Assembly: GCA_038063075.1 (NCBI GenBank)
Contig: JBBTVW010000051.1
Location: 1 to 30,117 of the forward strand
DNA from: Patescibacteria group bacterium
Lineage (GTDB): Bacteria; Patescibacteriota; Microgenomatia; Levybacterales; UBA12049
Direction of reading: 5' to 3'
DNA: 30,117 nt
Part shown: positions 7,523 to 14,173 of the stretch, piece by piece
How the letters are laid out: each line of letters begins with the position of its first letter
Position numbering within the stretch: position 1 is the stretch's first letter
Program-made: the position numbers and the translations under genes
The notes under the pieces: model-generated
Told to the model about the DNA's origin: nothing
Database searches by the model: none
What the model saw: the letters and a program-made list of their open reading frames with translations, nothing else

Positions 7523-8995
7523 TTAATGCTTTATTTTAAAAATAACCATAGAACTAAAAGTTGCGACTTTTTCTTGATTATTTATAAAATCAGATAATTT
7601 TGTTTTGAAATTATATGGACCATAGGCAACTACGTATTTTGTTTTCTTTTGTTTTATCTCTTCAATTATTCTCTCATCATCATAAAAACGCCACGCTCTT
7701 ACATAATATATCGAGTCCTTAGATGGATTCTTTCTATCAAAAATGAAATAAAAAAGTGGATTAAATGGATAAAATAAAACATAATCTTTATTTGAAGTAT
7801 TTTCATTAAGGAATTTTTCTATCGAATTTATTGTTTCTAATCGATAATTTTCAACTAAAATACCTTTTGCTCTTTGCAGATTTACCACAGACTTATCTTT
7901 AAGGTAATAATTTTCATATATGCTTTGAAAAAAAGTAAGATAAAAACCAATTGAAATACAAAGCAAAACAAATATAGTTATATACTTAAACTTTTTATCT
8001 TTATAAAAAAGTAATATTAAAGAAACTAAAACTAAGCCAAAGAATGGATAAACATGCAAAAGATCACTTTGTGGATAAATTGCAACAAAGAAACCTAAGA
8101 CTGCACTTAAAGAAAATAAAATTATTTTAAAATCTAATTTTCTTTTAAAAATCAAAATTAGTGTAAATATTAAAACAAAGATTGGTAAATAATAGGGAAT
8201 AAGTTTAATAAATCCAAATGGCTTAAAAAGATTTGTTAAAGGTGGATAGGAAAATGCGTATGCAGCAATAAAGTTTCTGCTAAAATTTATATATTCTATA
8301 AGCCCAACAAGATTATCTTTTAAAAAAAAATAATATATCCAGACACTAGTTACCAAACTTACAGTTAAGTTAAATGTTAATAATGATTTAAAGATTCTTT
8401 TTATGCTTTTTCTTTGGAAAACTATAAAAAGTAAGTTATAAAACAATAAATAATAAAGAGCAAAGTTTTGTTTTAGTAAAAATAATAATGCAATCAGTAT
8501 CCCTAAAGAAAATAAAAATCTATTATCTTTATTTTTTAAATATAAAACAAAGGAAATTATTAATAGTATTGAAATAAAAACTGTAGGCCACATAAGATTT
8601 GGGATATTTAACAATGGGTATCCAAAAGAAATTATTGAAAGAAAGACAAGTATAATTATTTTTTTTGATTTTATCTTAAGAAGATTAAGTAAATAAAATA
8701 TACTTACAATAATTGACAAGCAAAATATTAAGCTTAAAAACCTACCAAAATAAATTGTTAAACCGAATAATTTATAACCAAAAGATAATAAATAAAAATA
8801 AAGGGGACCATATTGCAGTGAAAAATCTTTATATGGAATATCTCCTAAAAATATTCTTTGGGCAGCATGAACAAAGTATCCTTCATCAAAATTGACTAAA
8901 TTCTTGTTAAGAAAAAATAAGTAATAAGAAAAGGCTATTATTAAAAGTACAATTTGCAAGAAATATTTGTTAATAAATTTACGTAACTTAATCAT
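7523..8995 (-). CDS. GT-C fold glycosyltransferase (ArnT/PMT-like)
   Basis: First-loop FDEGY motif followed by GDIPYKDF..QYGP, then many TM helices; 490 aa. Confidence 0.75.
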   Translation of the reverse strand: MIKLRKFINKYFLQIVLLIIAFSYYLFFLNKNLVNFDEGYFVHAAQRIFLGDIPYKDFSLQYGPLYFYLLSFGYKLFGLTIYFGRFLSLIFCLSIIVSIFYLLNLLKIKSKKIIILVFLSIISFGYPLLNIPNLMWPTVFISILLIISFVLYLKNKDNRFLFSLGILIALLFLLKQNFALYYLLFYNLLFIVFQRKSIKRIFKSLLTFNLTVSLVTSVWIYYFFLKDNLVGLIEYINFSRNFIAAYAFSYPPLTNLFKPFGFIKLIPYYLPIFVLIFTLILIFKRKLDFKIILFSLSAVLGFFVAIYPQSDLLHVYPFFGLVLVSLILLFYKDKKFKYITIFVLLCISIGFYLTFFQSIYENYYLKDKSVVNLQRAKGILVENYRLETINSIEKFLNENTSNKDYVLFYPFNPLFYFIFDRKNPSKDSIYYVRAWRFYDDERIIEEIKQKKTKYVVAYGPYNFKTKLSDFINNQEKVATFSSMVIFKIKH

Positions 8996-9104
8996 TTATA
9001 TTCTCTAAAATATACTTTTTTATAGCTATAATTACAAGCTTTGAATACTTGGGGATGCTTCACTCAAAAAATCGCCCAATCAACTACTACACCTTATAGC
9101 TTTT

Positions 9105-9827
9105 TTAATTCTTATTTTTTATTCCTAATCCAGAAGCTATCATTATAAACAAATAAATACAAGGAATTACTGTTGCAGCAAAAATTAGTTCTGTTATTGG
9201 AATAACACTACCTATAAGCTTAAGACCAAATATATTGTGGTCCAATAACCAAACTTGATACAAATATTCTTCTCCTATTAATAAAATGTAAAGATAATAA
9301 AAAATAAATGCACCGATAAACGCAGTTACAGCGGTATATAAATATGCTTTAAGTAAATCCTTTCTGATAATTAATAAGACTATCGATATTAGAATAGAGG
9401 TAGCTACGATTGAAAACATCGAATTTATGTTTCCTAATAAAGTTAATCCGAAAAACATAGCAATAAGAATGATAGACAATATTAAAAATCTGATAATATA
9501 AGAAAAATAATTCTTTAATGGCTTATTGAAAGTTTTATTAGAAATAATAATATATGAGAATGCCCCAATTACAGGAGCAGCAAAGGCAAAAATAAGATCC
9601 TCAATAGTAATCCTTACCCCTAAAAATTTAATTTCAAATAATGTTGGAAAGAACCAATAATCTCTAAAAAATAGTATCTCTGATATTGGCCCAGAAGGAA
9701 TGAGCAATAAGCCTGTAATTAATGATATTTTCCTTAAGTCTTTTCTTAATAGGAAAACAATTAAAAACAGAAGGAGAATTATTAGGCTTCCAACAAGATA
9801 TACCAACCGAAAATCTAGCTCAAACAT
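9105..9827 (-). CDS. Lycopene-cyclase-domain-like membrane protein (two repeated hydrophobic halves)
   Basis: 240 aa, very hydrophobic. Repeated motifs DYW...ITIEDLIF and QVW...IPITELIF. Confidence 0.55.
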   Translation of the reverse strand: MFELDFRLVYLVGSLIILLLFLIVFLLRKDLRKISLITGLLLIPSGPISEILFFRDYWFFPTLFEIKFLGVRITIEDLIFAFAAPVIGAFSYIIISNKTFNKPLKNYFSYIIRFLILSIILIAMFFGLTLLGNINSMFSIVATSILISIVLLIIRKDLLKAYLYTAVTAFIGAFIFYYLYILLIGEEYLYQVWLLDHNIFGLKLIGSVIPITELIFAATVIPCIYLFIMIASGLGIKNKN

Positions 9828-9847
9828 GAAAAAATTATAGCAGAAAA

Positions 9848-10111
9848 TTATTTTTTATAAATATATTTTTCCCAAAGTTTTTTAAAGTATGGAAGAGTTA
9901 AGGTTGAAAGAAGAAAACCTACGGAAGGAACAATTGCATTAATCCAAGGATCAATTCCTACAATAAATTTAAGATATAATGCTATCGCTAAGTATGTAAA
10001 GATTGCGATTAAAATTTTTCTTGTGTAACTTGTTTCCCAATTCTTATCTTTTTCAACATTTATATTTCTATTTTCAATTTGAGTAATTCTTTCTTCTAAA
10101 TTATTGTTCAT
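9848..10111 (-). CDS. Small hypothetical membrane protein
   Basis: 87 aa: N-terminal coiled segment and two TM helices. AGGAG lies upstream. Confidence 0.8.
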   Translation of the reverse strand: MNNNLEERITQIENRNINVEKDKNWETSYTRKILIAIFTYLAIALYLKFIVGIDPWINAIVPSVGFLLSTLTLPYFKKLWEKYIYKK

Positions 10112-10127
10112 ACAATTATTTCAACTC

Positions 10128-10151
10128 CTAATTTGGGTAGTGACAATTTTT
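10128..10151 (-). repeat. Second copy of the secA 3' end (encodes KNCHYPN*)
   Basis: AAA AAT TGT CAC TAC CCA AAT TAG here versus AAG AAT TGT CAC TAT CCA AAT TAA in secA (11474-11497). 21/24 nt are identical and all three differences are synonymous third-position changes. Confidence 0.85.
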
Positions 10152-10180
10152 GAACGCTAATCAAATAGACTACCTTATAA

Positions 10181-11455
10181 TTAAGAACTAATAAAATCCG
10201 TAAGCCTAACTCCATCAACCTCTTTATCTGTTAATTTTTTTACGGTTTCATCATCACCTTTTTTCCGAGCATAATCAATTGCTATCTGTATAACTTCGCC
10301 TAATCTTTTTCTTTTTGATGTTTTTGCATCATCTCCTGTATCTTCAATTGTAGCATTATGTGTTAAGTTCATCCTTTTGGGAACTACAAAAACATCTGGA
10401 TATAATTCTTCTGTGGAAAGGTAAGGCAAAGCATGTCTCATAAACTCATCGCTTAATAAATAAGAGGTAATCCTCTCCATTCTTTCTTCTCTTGTCTCCG
10501 TAGCGCTACCATCCATCTCGGAAGGAATTGTTCTTCTAAGCATAGAGAAGTATAGTAAACTTGATGGAATAGTTGTGTCTTGTGGACTAACAACGCTTAC
10601 ACTAAAATCAGAATTTGGATCACTGTCTTCATCTTTCAAACGCCTGAATGCTTCCTCAAAAAATTCCACAGATGGTAAAAAGTCTTGAGCTAAAAATTGC
10701 TCTAAGTGATCTGCCCAAGATATGTGATCATACAAAATTGCTCTTTCAAGATCATCAGCTAGTCTAGGATCAGTGAGTAAGTCTGCCCATTTTACACTGT
10801 GAACAACACCCCAAGTACTCAACATTTTATTTTTTACCTCATCACTAAGATTAGGTATTAAATTTATCAGAAATTCTCGAGCCTCATCTAAAGAAAAATT
10901 GGCAACAATCTCCGCATTTGCATTGGTAAAATCAGCATAATCAAAAAAATCATAGGAACCGTCTCGAATACCTAATCTTGATATTGCTCTTCTAAATTCG
11001 TTATTATCACCAGGATTAGATTTAATTTTATGCCAATTATCTTCGGTGATAGGTTCATCCTCAACTGGTTGAAACATTTTTCTTACAGCTGGATTAGTAA
11101 CTAGAGCATAATGTTGAAGTACAAAATTTTCAGGATGTCCTTCAGTTTCAAATTGCGCATCTCTTAGAGAACGATGTGGCTTCGCTTCATCTAGCAAAAC
11201 TGAACTAACTACATCGCTTCGGAGTTCTTCTGGACTAGAATACCAGCTAATTAGAGCTTCTAAATGTTGTCCTTGGATCCATAATTCATTTGTTGCAACT
11301 AATAGAGCTCTTGATAATTCTCTTCTATCGGGTGGAATAACAATTGGAGAGTCGGGATAAGTCTCCACACGACCAAACCTTAATTTTCTTACAGGTGGTG
11401 TTTTAGCATCATTCTCAGGGCGAGAAGATTTTGATCGTTCTACTTTGTCGTTCAT
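10181..11455 (-). CDS. Orphan acidic soluble protein of unknown function, probably inserted
   Basis: 424-aa ORF with its own TGC-TATTAT box 6 nt before the ATG. It lies between the two secA-end copies. No family was recognised. Confidence 0.85.
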   Translation of the reverse strand: MNDKVERSKSSRPENDAKTPPVRKLRFGRVETYPDSPIVIPPDRRELSRALLVATNELWIQGQHLEALISWYSSPEELRSDVVSSVLLDEAKPHRSLRDAQFETEGHPENFVLQHYALVTNPAVRKMFQPVEDEPITEDNWHKIKSNPGDNNEFRRAISRLGIRDGSYDFFDYADFTNANAEIVANFSLDEAREFLINLIPNLSDEVKNKMLSTWGVVHSVKWADLLTDPRLADDLERAILYDHISWADHLEQFLAQDFLPSVEFFEEAFRRLKDEDSDPNSDFSVSVVSPQDTTIPSSLLYFSMLRRTIPSEMDGSATETREERMERITSYLLSDEFMRHALPYLSTEELYPDVFVVPKRMNLTHNATIEDTGDDAKTSKRKRLGEVIQIAIDYARKKGDDETVKKLTDKEVDGVRLTDFISS

Positions 11456-11473
11456 ATCAACATAATAGCAAAA

Positions 11474-14173
11474 TTAATTTGGATAGTGACAATTCTTATA
11501 CTTCACGTGTGTTCCATCTGATTTAGTTCTTCCACACCAACATGGATCATTTCTGCCAAGCTTTTTCTTAACTATAGCTTTCTGATCATCTGAAACTTCT
11601 TTATTTACATTTGATCCAGCTGCATTTTGGGTAACACCAGGCTTAGTAAGTGGATTTTCAATAGGATGCTCATGATGAAGATGGATTTTATAAATTCTAT
11701 GAATCATTTCATCATCTATAGCATTTATTAATTTTTCAAACATTGCGTATGCTTCATTTTTATATTCAACTAATGGATCTTTCTGCCCATATCCTCTTAA
11801 GCCAATTCCTTGTCTTAAATTATCTATTGCATCTAAATGATCAACCCAAAGATTATCGACTACAGAAAGTGCTACATATCTTTCAAGTTGTCGCATAACC
11901 TCTTCTCCCATCTCTTTTTCTCTTTTTTGATAAAGATCATCAGCAATATTTGTTAAAAAGGAAGTTTTTTCTTCAAAGTTTTTTAACTGTTCAATTTGTG
12001 TAATTATTTGTTTAATTGAATTTTCATCAAAAGGTATTATGGTAGCAAATTGTTCTGCAATTTTTTCAGATGAGGATTTGCCTTCTTCGAAACTCTCAGA
12101 ATACATTACTACTAATGAGGTAATACTTGCATGAATTTTTTCAATAATATCTTCTCTTAATTTAGTTTCTTTATCATCGGCTTCTAAGACTGCCTTTCTT
12201 CTTTGATAAATTATTTCCCTTTGTTTATTTAAAACATCATCATAGTCAACTAAATGTTTTCTGATATCAAAATTATACCCCTCAACCTTAACCTGAGCTT
12301 GTTCTATTGCTCTTGAGACTAGTGGATGAGAAAGAGGTACATCTTCTGGCATATTAAATCTTGTCATTAGCCCCGATATTGTATCTCCACCAAAAAGCCT
12401 CATGATGTCATCATCAAGACCAACAAAGAATTGTGAAAGACCAGGATCACCTTGTCTTCCAGATCTTCCTCTTAACTGATTATCAATTCTTCTAGATTCA
12501 TGTCTTTCTGTTCCTATTACATATAATCCACCAAGATCCAAAACTTCCTTGTGTTTTCTTTCCCATTCTTTCCATTCTTTAGAATCCTTGTCATCAGTTC
12601 CATCAGCATTTCTTGGAGGCTCTCCACCTAAGATAATATCAACACCACGTCCTGCCATATTAGTTGCTACAGTTACTGCACCTTTTTCTCCTGCTTTTGC
12701 AATAATTTCTGCTTCTCTTTCATGATTTTTAGCATTTAATACTTCATGCTTTATTCCTTTTCTTTTTAGAAGCTCACTTACGATTTCATTCTTATCGATA
12801 GAGGTTGTTCCGACTAATACGGGCTGACCTCTTTTATGTGCTTTTTCAATCTCAACTGCAACTGCAGTATATTTTGCTCTAGAAGTTTTATATATAGCAT
12901 CTGCCATATCATTTCTTACCATGTCTCTATGAGTTGGAATAACAACAACATCTAATTTATAGATCTTATTAAACTCCTCAGCCTCTGTTACGGCAGTTCC
13001 TGTCATTCCTGCTAAAAGTTCGTACATTCTGAAATAATTTTGCAAAGAAACTGTTGCTAGTGTTTTTGACTCTCTTTGAATAACGACTGCTTCTTTTGCT
13101 TCGATAGCTTGATGGAGTCCTTCAGAAAGCCTTCTTCCAACCATAAGTCTTCCTGTGAATTCATCAACTAAGATTACTTCTCCGTCTTTTACTATATAAT
13201 CTTTTTCTTTATGAAAAAGAGTTCTTGCTTTTAAAGCTGCTTCTAGGTGATAAACGGTATCAAAATCTTTTTCATAGATATTTGCAATTCCATAAAGTTT
13301 TTCAATCTTTCCTATTCCATGATCTGTTAGGTGAGCTGTTCTTAGCTTTTCATCAATCTTATAATCAGTTTCTGAAGATAATTTATCTACAAGCTTTGCA
13401 TATTCATAATATTTTTTAGTAGGTTCTTCATCAGGAGCTGAAATAATATGTGGCGTTCTTGCTTCATCGATTAAAACAGAATCAACTTCATCAACAACTG
13501 CAAAATAAAAACCTCTTTGAGCTAATGAGTTCTTATCTTGGGCCATGTTATCCCTAAGATAATCAAAACCAAATTCTGAATTAATTCCATAAACAACATC
13601 GGCCAAATAAGCTTCTTTTCTTTCAATTGATTTTAAATGTAAAAGCCTATTATCCGTTGCCTCTTTGTTTACAAACTTGGGGTCAAAAAGAAAAGATTGT
13701 TCACTAATAATTGAAGATACGCTAAGTCCTAGGTAATTAAATATTGGTCCCATCCAACCTGCATCTCTTCTTGCCAAATAATCGTTTACAGTAACTAAAT
13801 GTACTCCTTTTCCAGTTAATGAGTGAAGATATAAGGCTGGAGTTGCAGATAATGTTTTTCCCTCTCCTGTTTTTTGCTCAGCTATTTTTCCATTAGCAAG
13901 TGAGGCTGCTGCCATAAGTTGAACATCAAAATGCCTAAGCCCTAATGTTCTAAAAGCTGCTTCTCTTGTTAGGGCAAAAGCTTCTGCCATTAAGCTTTCA
14001 AGTGGCTCACCATCTTCAACTCTTTCTTTTAATTCTTTTGTTTTTTTGGGGAAATCTGTAGCTTTTAATTTCTTAATCTTTGGTTCTAAACTATTGATCT
14101 CTTCAATTAGAGAGTTTAGCTTACTTATTTCTTTTTCATTGGAATCAAATAACTTTCCGAAGATATTTAGCAT
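11474..14173 (-). CDS. secA: Preprotein translocase subunit SecA
   Basis: QKTGEGKT, VDEVDSVLIDEARTP and RRIDNQLRGRSGRQGDPG motifs, plus a C-terminal SEC-C motif (GRNDPCWCG...KYKNCH); 899 aa. Confidence 0.99.
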   Translation of the reverse strand: MLNIFGKLFDSNEKEISKLNSLIEEINSLEPKIKKLKATDFPKKTKELKERVEDGEPLESLMAEAFALTREAAFRTLGLRHFDVQLMAAASLANGKIAEQKTGEGKTLSATPALYLHSLTGKGVHLVTVNDYLARRDAGWMGPIFNYLGLSVSSIISEQSFLFDPKFVNKEATDNRLLHLKSIERKEAYLADVVYGINSEFGFDYLRDNMAQDKNSLAQRGFYFAVVDEVDSVLIDEARTPHIISAPDEEPTKKYYEYAKLVDKLSSETDYKIDEKLRTAHLTDHGIGKIEKLYGIANIYEKDFDTVYHLEAALKARTLFHKEKDYIVKDGEVILVDEFTGRLMVGRRLSEGLHQAIEAKEAVVIQRESKTLATVSLQNYFRMYELLAGMTGTAVTEAEEFNKIYKLDVVVIPTHRDMVRNDMADAIYKTSRAKYTAVAVEIEKAHKRGQPVLVGTTSIDKNEIVSELLKRKGIKHEVLNAKNHEREAEIIAKAGEKGAVTVATNMAGRGVDIILGGEPPRNADGTDDKDSKEWKEWERKHKEVLDLGGLYVIGTERHESRRIDNQLRGRSGRQGDPGLSQFFVGLDDDIMRLFGGDTISGLMTRFNMPEDVPLSHPLVSRAIEQAQVKVEGYNFDIRKHLVDYDDVLNKQREIIYQRRKAVLEADDKETKLREDIIEKIHASITSLVVMYSESFEEGKSSSEKIAEQFATIIPFDENSIKQIITQIEQLKNFEEKTSFLTNIADDLYQKREKEMGEEVMRQLERYVALSVVDNLWVDHLDAIDNLRQGIGLRGYGQKDPLVEYKNEAYAMFEKLINAIDDEMIHRIYKIHLHHEHPIENPLTKPGVTQNAAGSNVNKEVSDDQKAIVKKKLGRNDPCWCGRTKSDGTHVKYKNCHYPN

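Follow-up and report, generated by a model that had tools for sequence, protein, structure and literature searches.

Here, we examine the 3' end of secA in a 30,117-nucleotide (nt) stretch of DNA (the window) from a Patescibacteria group bacterium of the Levybacterales (genome G000; contig JBBTVW010000051.1 of assembly GCA_038063075.1), where the last codons of the gene recur a short distance downstream. We consider it very likely that the codons for Lys-Lys-Cys-His in the SEC-C region of secA are the chromosomal attachment site (attB) of small elements moved by a large serine recombinase (LSR), and that the window carries the scar of one such insertion (attR) together with cargo. The evidence consists of a hybrid site downstream of secA, the genomic linkage of such sites to secA, a palindrome that lies beside an LSR gene and contains one half of the hybrid site, and the integrated state of the elements in relatives. 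In the literature that we searched, no paper describes these elements or places a serine recombinase attB in secA.

The end of secA is duplicated in the window. The gene is complete (899 amino acids [aa]; positions 11474 to 14173, minus strand), and its product matches the Pfam families SecA_DEAD, SecA_PP_bind, P-loop_SecA and SecA_SW and, in part, SEC-C. Its last eight codons (11474 to 11497, minus strand; K N C H Y P N stop) recur on the same strand at 10128 to 10151 with 3 mismatches in 24 nt. An earlier reading of this DNA from its letters (here, the sequence-only reading) had reported that the differences are purely synonymous, and indeed the three (AAG/AAA, TAT/TAC and TAA/TAG) are all synonymous or replace stop with stop. 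A second copy appeared in 0 of 100 shuffles that preserved dinucleotides. The codon that precedes the repeat is TTC in the downstream remnant and TAT in secA. The TAG of the remnant (10128 to 10130) lies 16 nt ahead of the ATG (10111) of an 87-aa open reading frame (ORF) and overlaps the AGGAG ribosome-binding site of that gene, and a 424-aa ORF (10181 to 11455) is the sole ORF between the two copies.

A duplication of this kind could be produced by joining two strains during assembly, a danger that the sequence-only reading had raised itself. The window sequence occurs in groundwater metagenome runs. In a run from another sample (X2), a single 2723-nt contig spans 9769 to 12491 with 2 differences and includes both junctions, and in run X1 each junction is bridged separately by one of two contigs. 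Moreover, a minor 206-nt contig that is ~10% divergent carries the identical type of junction between the end of secA and the start of the cargo in a related strain. Because independent assemblies agree, we take the repeat to be real and, to the extent that contigs can tell, no chimera.

The downstream copy extends beyond the repeat. In another organism, a homologue of the 424-aa protein (P0007; 47% identical) is encoded directly after secA and is followed by a remnant as in the window, and the two organisms also resemble each other over the 25 to 30 nt to the left of the remnant, a stretch that is not secA-like. The downstream copy is a 47-nt hybrid site (10128 to 10174), in which a 25-nt non-secA arm, here called P (10150 to 10174, minus strand), is joined to the former secA tail, here called B' (10128 to 10149, minus strand; N C H Y P N stop). 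Public data were searched with a pattern made of the P arm and the first remnant codons, and the P motif plus core was found in 37 metagenome contigs and 2 Levybacteria genome assemblies. The first two search patterns miss the window's own P arm, which has a 1-nt deletion, and a model (R1) built from the sequences of a site alignment (A3, in which the window stands with 28 other sites) matches it. At window positions 10128 to 10180, R1 scores 46.5 bits (E value of 1.4e-12 per genome), versus ~15 bits for a bare secA end; at the present secA tail the match covers the B' part only, at 15.5 bits. Apart from the deletion, the window P arm differs from the 26-nt consensus at 4 positions, 2 of which fall in columns that vary among sites. 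No other copy of the P motif was found in G000, either at up to 3 mismatches or with R1.

The alignment separates the site into two halves that vary in different ways. Bases of P that the search pattern left unconstrained are still conserved, as is a TGTG upstream. Conservation drops abruptly past TTCAA; to the right, variation falls at codon third positions, and most copies, translated in frame, give a SecA C-terminus followed by a stop codon. At 13 other loci (11 of them distinct), a plausible SecA tail stands at the remnant position, stop-terminated in all except three. The remnant tails differ from the current tail of the same locus, such as QLPSN in the remnant versus QQMP now, QLG versus QERS, and QMS versus QYG. 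Sites of this type, P followed by a SecA-like tail, are present in the window, at 11 distinct aligned secA-linked loci and in 29 genomes of the family. The proposal that the downstream copy is the original end of secA gains from the combination of P with remnants that encode differing SecA tails, and the differences between remnant and current tails support the further proposal that incoming DNA supplied a new tail along with the cargo.

The P arm is half of a larger site. At two loci (L062 and L090), P extends into a 50-bp near-palindrome of which it is the left half. In L062 (5643 to 5692), 19 of 25 half-site positions are symmetric about a centre between TTTCA and AGAAG. At a distance of 85 nt from the palindrome is the 3' end of a gene whose 522-aa product has Resolvase, Recombinase and Zn_ribbon_recom domains and is predicted by them to be an LSR; a gene for a 73-aa HTH_17/MerR protein adjoins the LSR gene. 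L062 also encodes a primase/helicase-like protein, and because its ends overlap by 127 nt, it is a circle of 9175 bp. Its layout would conform to the usual picture of a free integrative element, with the attachment site of the element (attP) beside the integrase gene. A recombinase with all three domain types is encoded beside an attachment site in L062, L090, G135, G141 and G142. The candidate attP and attB share a 12-nt block, AAR AAR TGY CAY. Both the centre of the palindrome and the loss of conservation past TTCAA favour the first AA as the crossover (11497 to 11496 on the window secA), and the 12 shared nucleotides leave a choice. The likeness to attL/attR that the sequence-only reading had seen in the repeat is borne out by the arm that precedes the remnant, as that arm is half of an LSR-associated palindrome.

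If the palindrome is attP, an integrated element should have secA joined to its right half, P', with the LSR gene beside secA on the opposite strand. The LSR of L062 was used as the query against 245 genomes of the order, and three close homologues were found, two of them 70 to 71% identical (G135 and G141) and one a partial copy (G142; 64%). In all three genomes, the LSR gene abuts the 3' end of secA and is convergent with it. There, secA reads ...G-S-G-K-K-W-K-K-C-H followed by L/I-N-R-E-P..., and at the nucleotide level the tail joined to the LSR gene is the P' half of the L062 palindrome, the arrangement expected of attL (B + P'). Because the secA tail there is the P' half, the element supplies the Cys-His pair needed to complete the SEC-C zinc finger. 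The extended secA tail of G142 is homologous to the reading frame that leaves P' in L062. Moreover, G135 has a P-type site 9.6 kb downstream on the secA strand, a distance that matches the size of the free circle. An integrase acting in trans, one of the routes put forward at the outset, agrees with these findings, as the LSR is absent from the window and is integrated exactly at the end of secA in relatives. We note that at the distal site of G135 (L105; G135:C1 2945 to 2994), P is joined to a P'-like, noncanonical tail, C-H-M-N-S-D-L-D-R stop, and an earlier insertion may already have remodelled the secA end into which the G135 element inserted.

P sites are linked to secA. R1 was run on 151 genomes of the family, and its matches were placed against the coordinates of secA. 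A match containing P was found in 29 of the 151. In 21 of the 29, the site is on the secA contig, on the secA strand and 0.1 to 13 kb downstream; in the remaining 8, it is on other contigs of fragmented assemblies, and none of the 29 genomes has a P site upstream of secA or on the strand opposite to it. Of the 37 metagenome loci, 15 show secA upstream in the same orientation, namely those in which the DNA covered reached far enough. The loci carry unrelated DNA between secA and the P site, and nearly all genes in it are on the secA strand. They include HicAB, PIN/antitoxin, RelE-type and Fic-like pairs, a nucleotidyltransferase, an M23 peptidase and many genes of unknown function. The suggestion that secA is a site of gene capture is thereby sustained, with different cargo between similar repeats in related genomes.

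Insertions also accumulate. Two or three P sites stand in a row in G212, G013, G194, G018 and G006, and cassettes stand in tandem in L052, G013 and G212, with P plus an old tail closing each. The order in L052 is secA, a cassette with an M23 peptidase gene, P plus an old tail, a cassette with a 428-aa gene, and P plus an older tail. L004, which is 99.9% identical to L052, is without the first cassette, and the right boundary of the difference falls exactly after TTCAA.

We propose the following mechanism. The chromosomal attB would be the 3' end of secA in Levybacteria-type bacteria of the candidate phyla radiation (CPR), and attP would be the near-palindrome of ~50 bp. Recombination inside the shared AAR-AAR-TGY-CAY block would join secA to P', and P' would supply the Cys-His codons again together with a new tail. 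The left half, P, would stay joined to the old secA tail downstream of the insert, forming attR. Positions 10128 to 10174 of the window would be such an attR, somewhat decayed, and the 424-aa gene would be the surviving part of the insert, derived from the P-proximal end of the element. The present canonical tail (11474 to 11497) and the 18-nt spacer after it would have arrived with the cargo. A foreign origin of the present tail is suggested by the L052/L004 comparison and by the remnant tails that differ from current ones.

The tail itself varies in another respect. At the SecA C-terminus of the window (11474 to 11560), the Cys-x-Cys and Cys-His parts of the zinc motif are separated by a 13-residue spacer, ...RTKSDGTHVKYKN.... 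A long spacer is also found in SecA of G002, G004 and G039, and the usual 8 residues in G003 and most relatives. Because the displaced old secA end in G039 is of the usual type, the long-spacer variant may itself travel with inserted DNA.

Several observations weigh against the proposed mechanism. The window tail is canonical (CHYPN stop) and not of the P' type seen at loci where an LSR is integrated, and in general the tail is canonical in the window and at most scar-bearing loci, and P'-type where an LSR is present. There is no recombinase between the repeats of the window, and the 96%-complete G000 has no close homologue of the element LSR. No excision joint that skips 10152 to 11497 was seen in contigs, the only data consulted, and absence of the joint is not implied. 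The crossover dinucleotide is not fixed by sequence, given the 12 nt that attP and attB share. The metagenome pattern and R1 both include the secA-like part, such that the association of P with a secA-like core is partly by construction; the linkage of P sites to the secA gene itself is not. Finally, L052 (746 to 785) and L004 (3286 to 3325) differ by 5 synonymous changes within 16 nt immediately left of the putative crossover and are identical for 660 nt beyond that patch. A single conservative LSR event does not explain the patch, and homologous conversion or a second kind of site may underlie it.

A canonical tail without an LSR implies a further step, one that removed the integrase side and supplied a normal tail. 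The most economical route would be that an element carrying an internal, captured attR excises through that inner site and drops its cargo. Having once excised through a more distal attR, the element would carry an inner attR together with the genes that lie past it. Once it had integrated again, excision by way of this inner attR would remove the integrase core, and the cargo would stay behind with the secA tail of the previous host. This route is plausible by analogy with composite islands of the staphylococcal cassette chromosome (SCC), and the loss of the integrase-bearing part with retention of a normal tail is what we infer for the window. We further suggest that the window cassette is probably a fossil by now, because there is no LSR between the sites or close homologue in G000 and because the P arm has decayed.

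Other insertions strike the same codons. G039 (L047/L054; +118 nt past the secA stop) and G040 (L048; +104 nt) belong to different families and share a second type of scar, in which a conserved non-secA arm is followed by a longer old end, G-G-S-G-K-K-W-K-x-C-H-Y-P-N stop. Its boundary is at the Gly-Ser-Gly codons, ~18 nt upstream of the LSR crossover, and it may be the footprint of another family of elements. In G002 (L042; G002:C1, ~1011 to 1700), a 214-aa gene on the opposite strand lies between secA and a homologue of a 490-aa gene of the window. The 214-aa protein has a homing-endonuclease-associated repeat (HNH_repeat) and a C-terminal CxxC...HH...CxxC motif, and its gene is followed by a ~33-nt copy of a KYKKCHWPN-type secA end with a 1-nt deletion that shifts the frame and with no P arm. 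In G012 (L046; G012:C5, ~990 to 1770), a hicB/hicA-like pair lies between the secA end and a copy that is identical at 23 of 24 positions; there is no clear P arm, and a weak match resembling half of P lies 700 nt further on. Thus, several kinds of insertion converge on the secA-end codons. We tentatively entertain the broader idea, which is possible but short of an even chance, that the SEC-C codons are a general platform for gene capture in Levybacteria, where LSR elements integrate, collect earlier scars and neighbouring genes through excision at alternative att sites, leave cargo behind with the second-hand secA tail of an earlier host, and so build arrays without a recombinase that resemble SCC or integrons. 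This broader idea takes in at least three further kinds of insertion within the same 40 nt, namely, the G039/G040 scar, the HNH gene of G002 and hicAB of G012. If it is true, the C-termini of secA are routinely exchanged between lineages.

Alternatively, no site-specific recombinase took part: transformed DNA, anchored in the conserved secA, would have brought in cargo and tail through homologous or homology-facilitated illegitimate recombination, and the repeat would be no more than portable homology. We consider this unlikely, but the left boundary of the L052/L004 difference, 16 nt to the left of the putative crossover, is like that of a conversion patch, the insertions in G002 and G012 show that secA ends are duplicated without a P arm, and the window has no integrase. 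Recombination by homology alone, however, leaves unexplained a 25-nt non-secA arm that is conserved in dozens of genomes with unrelated cargo, as well as the sharp drop at TTCAA, the palindrome beside an LSR gene and the LSR-secA junctions. Homologous exchange may have shaped the present tail, and illegitimate recombination, which the sequence-only reading had offered as an alternative to an integrase in trans, is unnecessary for the scar itself. A free-standing homing endonuclease that cut the conserved end of secA and so created the duplication is brought to mind by G002, of the same genus, where the protein with homing-endonuclease repeats is encoded between secA and the frameshifted remnant. 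The window remnant carries a P arm and that of G002 does not, however, and the window has no endonuclease gene, the 424-aa protein having no nuclease-like fold or family. We regard a homing endonuclease as very improbable.

Equally improbable, in our estimate, is that P and the remnant together form a functional cis element, such as a terminator, RNA motif or regulatory site, and that the likeness to secA is incidental or mimicry. The site is always just 3' of a gene on the same strand, and the stop codon of the window copy overlaps the ribosome-binding site of the gene that follows. Yet the site has no T-run and no stable conserved hairpin, its right part varies like coding wobble and is stop-terminated in most copies, its left part is half of an LSR-associated palindrome, and the cargo genes ahead of it are unrelated to one another. 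Short direct repeats that bound small cassettes, often toxin-antitoxin pairs without a recombinase of their own, would also suit an Xer/dif-type module or an integron-type cassette, and G000 has two Xer-sized tyrosine recombinases, on other contigs; the window has none. We give this idea almost no credence. In four near-closed genomes of relatives (G028, G058, G015 and G037), secA lies 16 to 31% of the genome from dnaA and not at the terminus, there is no site-specific switch in GC skew, and an Xer/dif module was rejected on these distances and skew profiles. An integron was rejected likewise, as there is no integron integrase (IntI), attI or structured, attC-like folded site, the site is conserved in sequence as half of the LSR palindrome, and the full site adjoins a serine and not a tyrosine recombinase. 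Integration by an LSR at the SEC-C codons is the reading that we retain.

The passenger gene (P0001; 10181 to 11455, minus strand) starts 18 nt past the secA stop and encodes a 424-aa, mostly helical protein of unknown function. It had been credited with its own promoter, a claim that the sequence does not support: the ATG stands those 18 nt beyond secA, and promoter-like matches in the region number 9, versus 7.7 in shuffles. P0001 matches no Pfam family and no family of defence systems in PADLOC. Its 16 homologues are 42 to 50% identical, and apart from P0007 they occur in varied, toxin-antitoxin-rich contexts without a P site. The AlphaFold2 model is mostly helical and of good confidence (pLDDT of 82), and its fold had no match in the PDB or in AFDB clusters, other than generic helical repeats at a TM score of ~0.2. 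The idea that P0001 is a hidden recombinase or nuclease was rejected on the absence of a family and a fold match and on the contexts of the homologues, which lack a P site. Nor is a foreign origin of the cargo evident in its base composition, as GC content (0.36; 89th percentile) and GC content at third codon positions (0.205; 75th percentile) are unremarkable. At 10515 and 10547 within the gene, contigs of the source sample split into two variants, a strain-level polymorphism.

Directly after the scar comes a gene for an 87-aa membrane protein (9848 to 10111, minus strand). Homologues were found in 62 of the 151 family genomes, none of them beside secA, and we conclude that the gene is host DNA or an older insertion and lies outside the cassette. 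The sequence-only reading had predicted an empty site in which secA is followed directly by this gene; no such site was found, the gene being unlinked to secA in relatives. Nor did genomes of the same genus have an empty site, as G002 carries the HNH gene and remnant, and G003 and G004 carry two other genes. The stretch between secA and a conserved 578-aa gene (window 7523 to 10111, compared with L042 to L044) is hypervariable within the genus. Beside secA it holds 424-, 87-, 240- and 490-aa genes in G000, the HNH and 490-aa genes in G002, and 630- and 360-aa genes in G003 and G004. The sole LSR of G000 (L041; contig C10, 637 to 2220) has 527 aa, and its catalytic domain shares 27% identity with that of the element LSR. 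Its gene is near the contig end, behind an AT-rich, repeat-laden region.

Taken together, the proposal would define a complete serine-integrase system, with a circular element of 9.2 kb, attP, attB and both types of junction. Its target would be the zinc-finger codons at the very end of an essential gene, secA, and scars are present in about 1 in 5 genomes of the family. The cargo consists mostly of toxin-antitoxin pairs and genes of unknown function. The hypervariable region beside secA would be explained, and SecA C-termini would be replaceable by copies that elements carry. Mobile elements of the CPR (Patescibacteria) are poorly known and genetic tools are absent for these organisms, and a natural pair of integrase and landing site is a candidate tool.

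Parts of this system resemble known ones. As in integron arrays, the cassettes are small, on the same strand, often of the toxin-antitoxin kind, and each has an end site and no recombinase of its own; in place of IntI, attI and a structured attC, however, there is the sequence-conserved site of a serine-recombinase system. As in islands that tyrosine integrases insert at the 3' ends of tRNA or transfer-messenger RNA (tmRNA) genes, where gene-end remnants stand in tandem, the element regenerates the end of a gene, remnants are left and the site is reused. The recombinase class differs from that of the islands, and here the site is a palindromic 50-mer without arm-type sites and the target is a zinc finger in a protein-coding gene. 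Large serine integrases also enter coding genes, including groEL1 (Bxb1), comK (A118) and spsM (SPbeta), and phiC31 encodes another such integrase. With serine-integrase phages and islands, the elements share an attP of ~50 bp that is an imperfect dyad beside the integrase gene, a small shared core and hybrid attL and attR. Many such phages disrupt the target until excision, whereas here P' would keep the essential secA intact, and no virion genes were detected on the element.

The closest analogue appears to be SCC and its pseudo-SCC (psiSCC) relatives at rlmH of staphylococci, although we draw an analogy and do not claim membership. In SCC, a conserved housekeeping gene is not destroyed by the insertion, and the direct repeats contain the last codons of the gene. 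The Ccr serine recombinases target the 3' end of rlmH (orfX) for insertion, and the units are bounded by repeats and accumulate as composites, with psiSCC units lacking a recombinase (PMC12648241). The systems differ in several ways. Here, the hosts are CPR bacteria of the Levybacteria and the target is the zinc-finger codons of secA, and a single LSR of ~522 aa is likened to Ccr by shared LSR domains only. Moreover, the elements are ~9 kb, carry replication genes and exist as a free circle, and the cargo is made up of toxin-antitoxin pairs and unknown genes and not resistance genes. LSR integration into the 3' end of a gene with accretion of cassettes was already known from SCC, and the likeness lies in insertion at a 3' end with the reading frame kept, in tandem units bounded by repeats and in units that lack a recombinase. 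Its counterparts here would be the secA tail, the repeats of P plus tail, the tandems of L052, G013 and G212, and the cassette of the window without an LSR.

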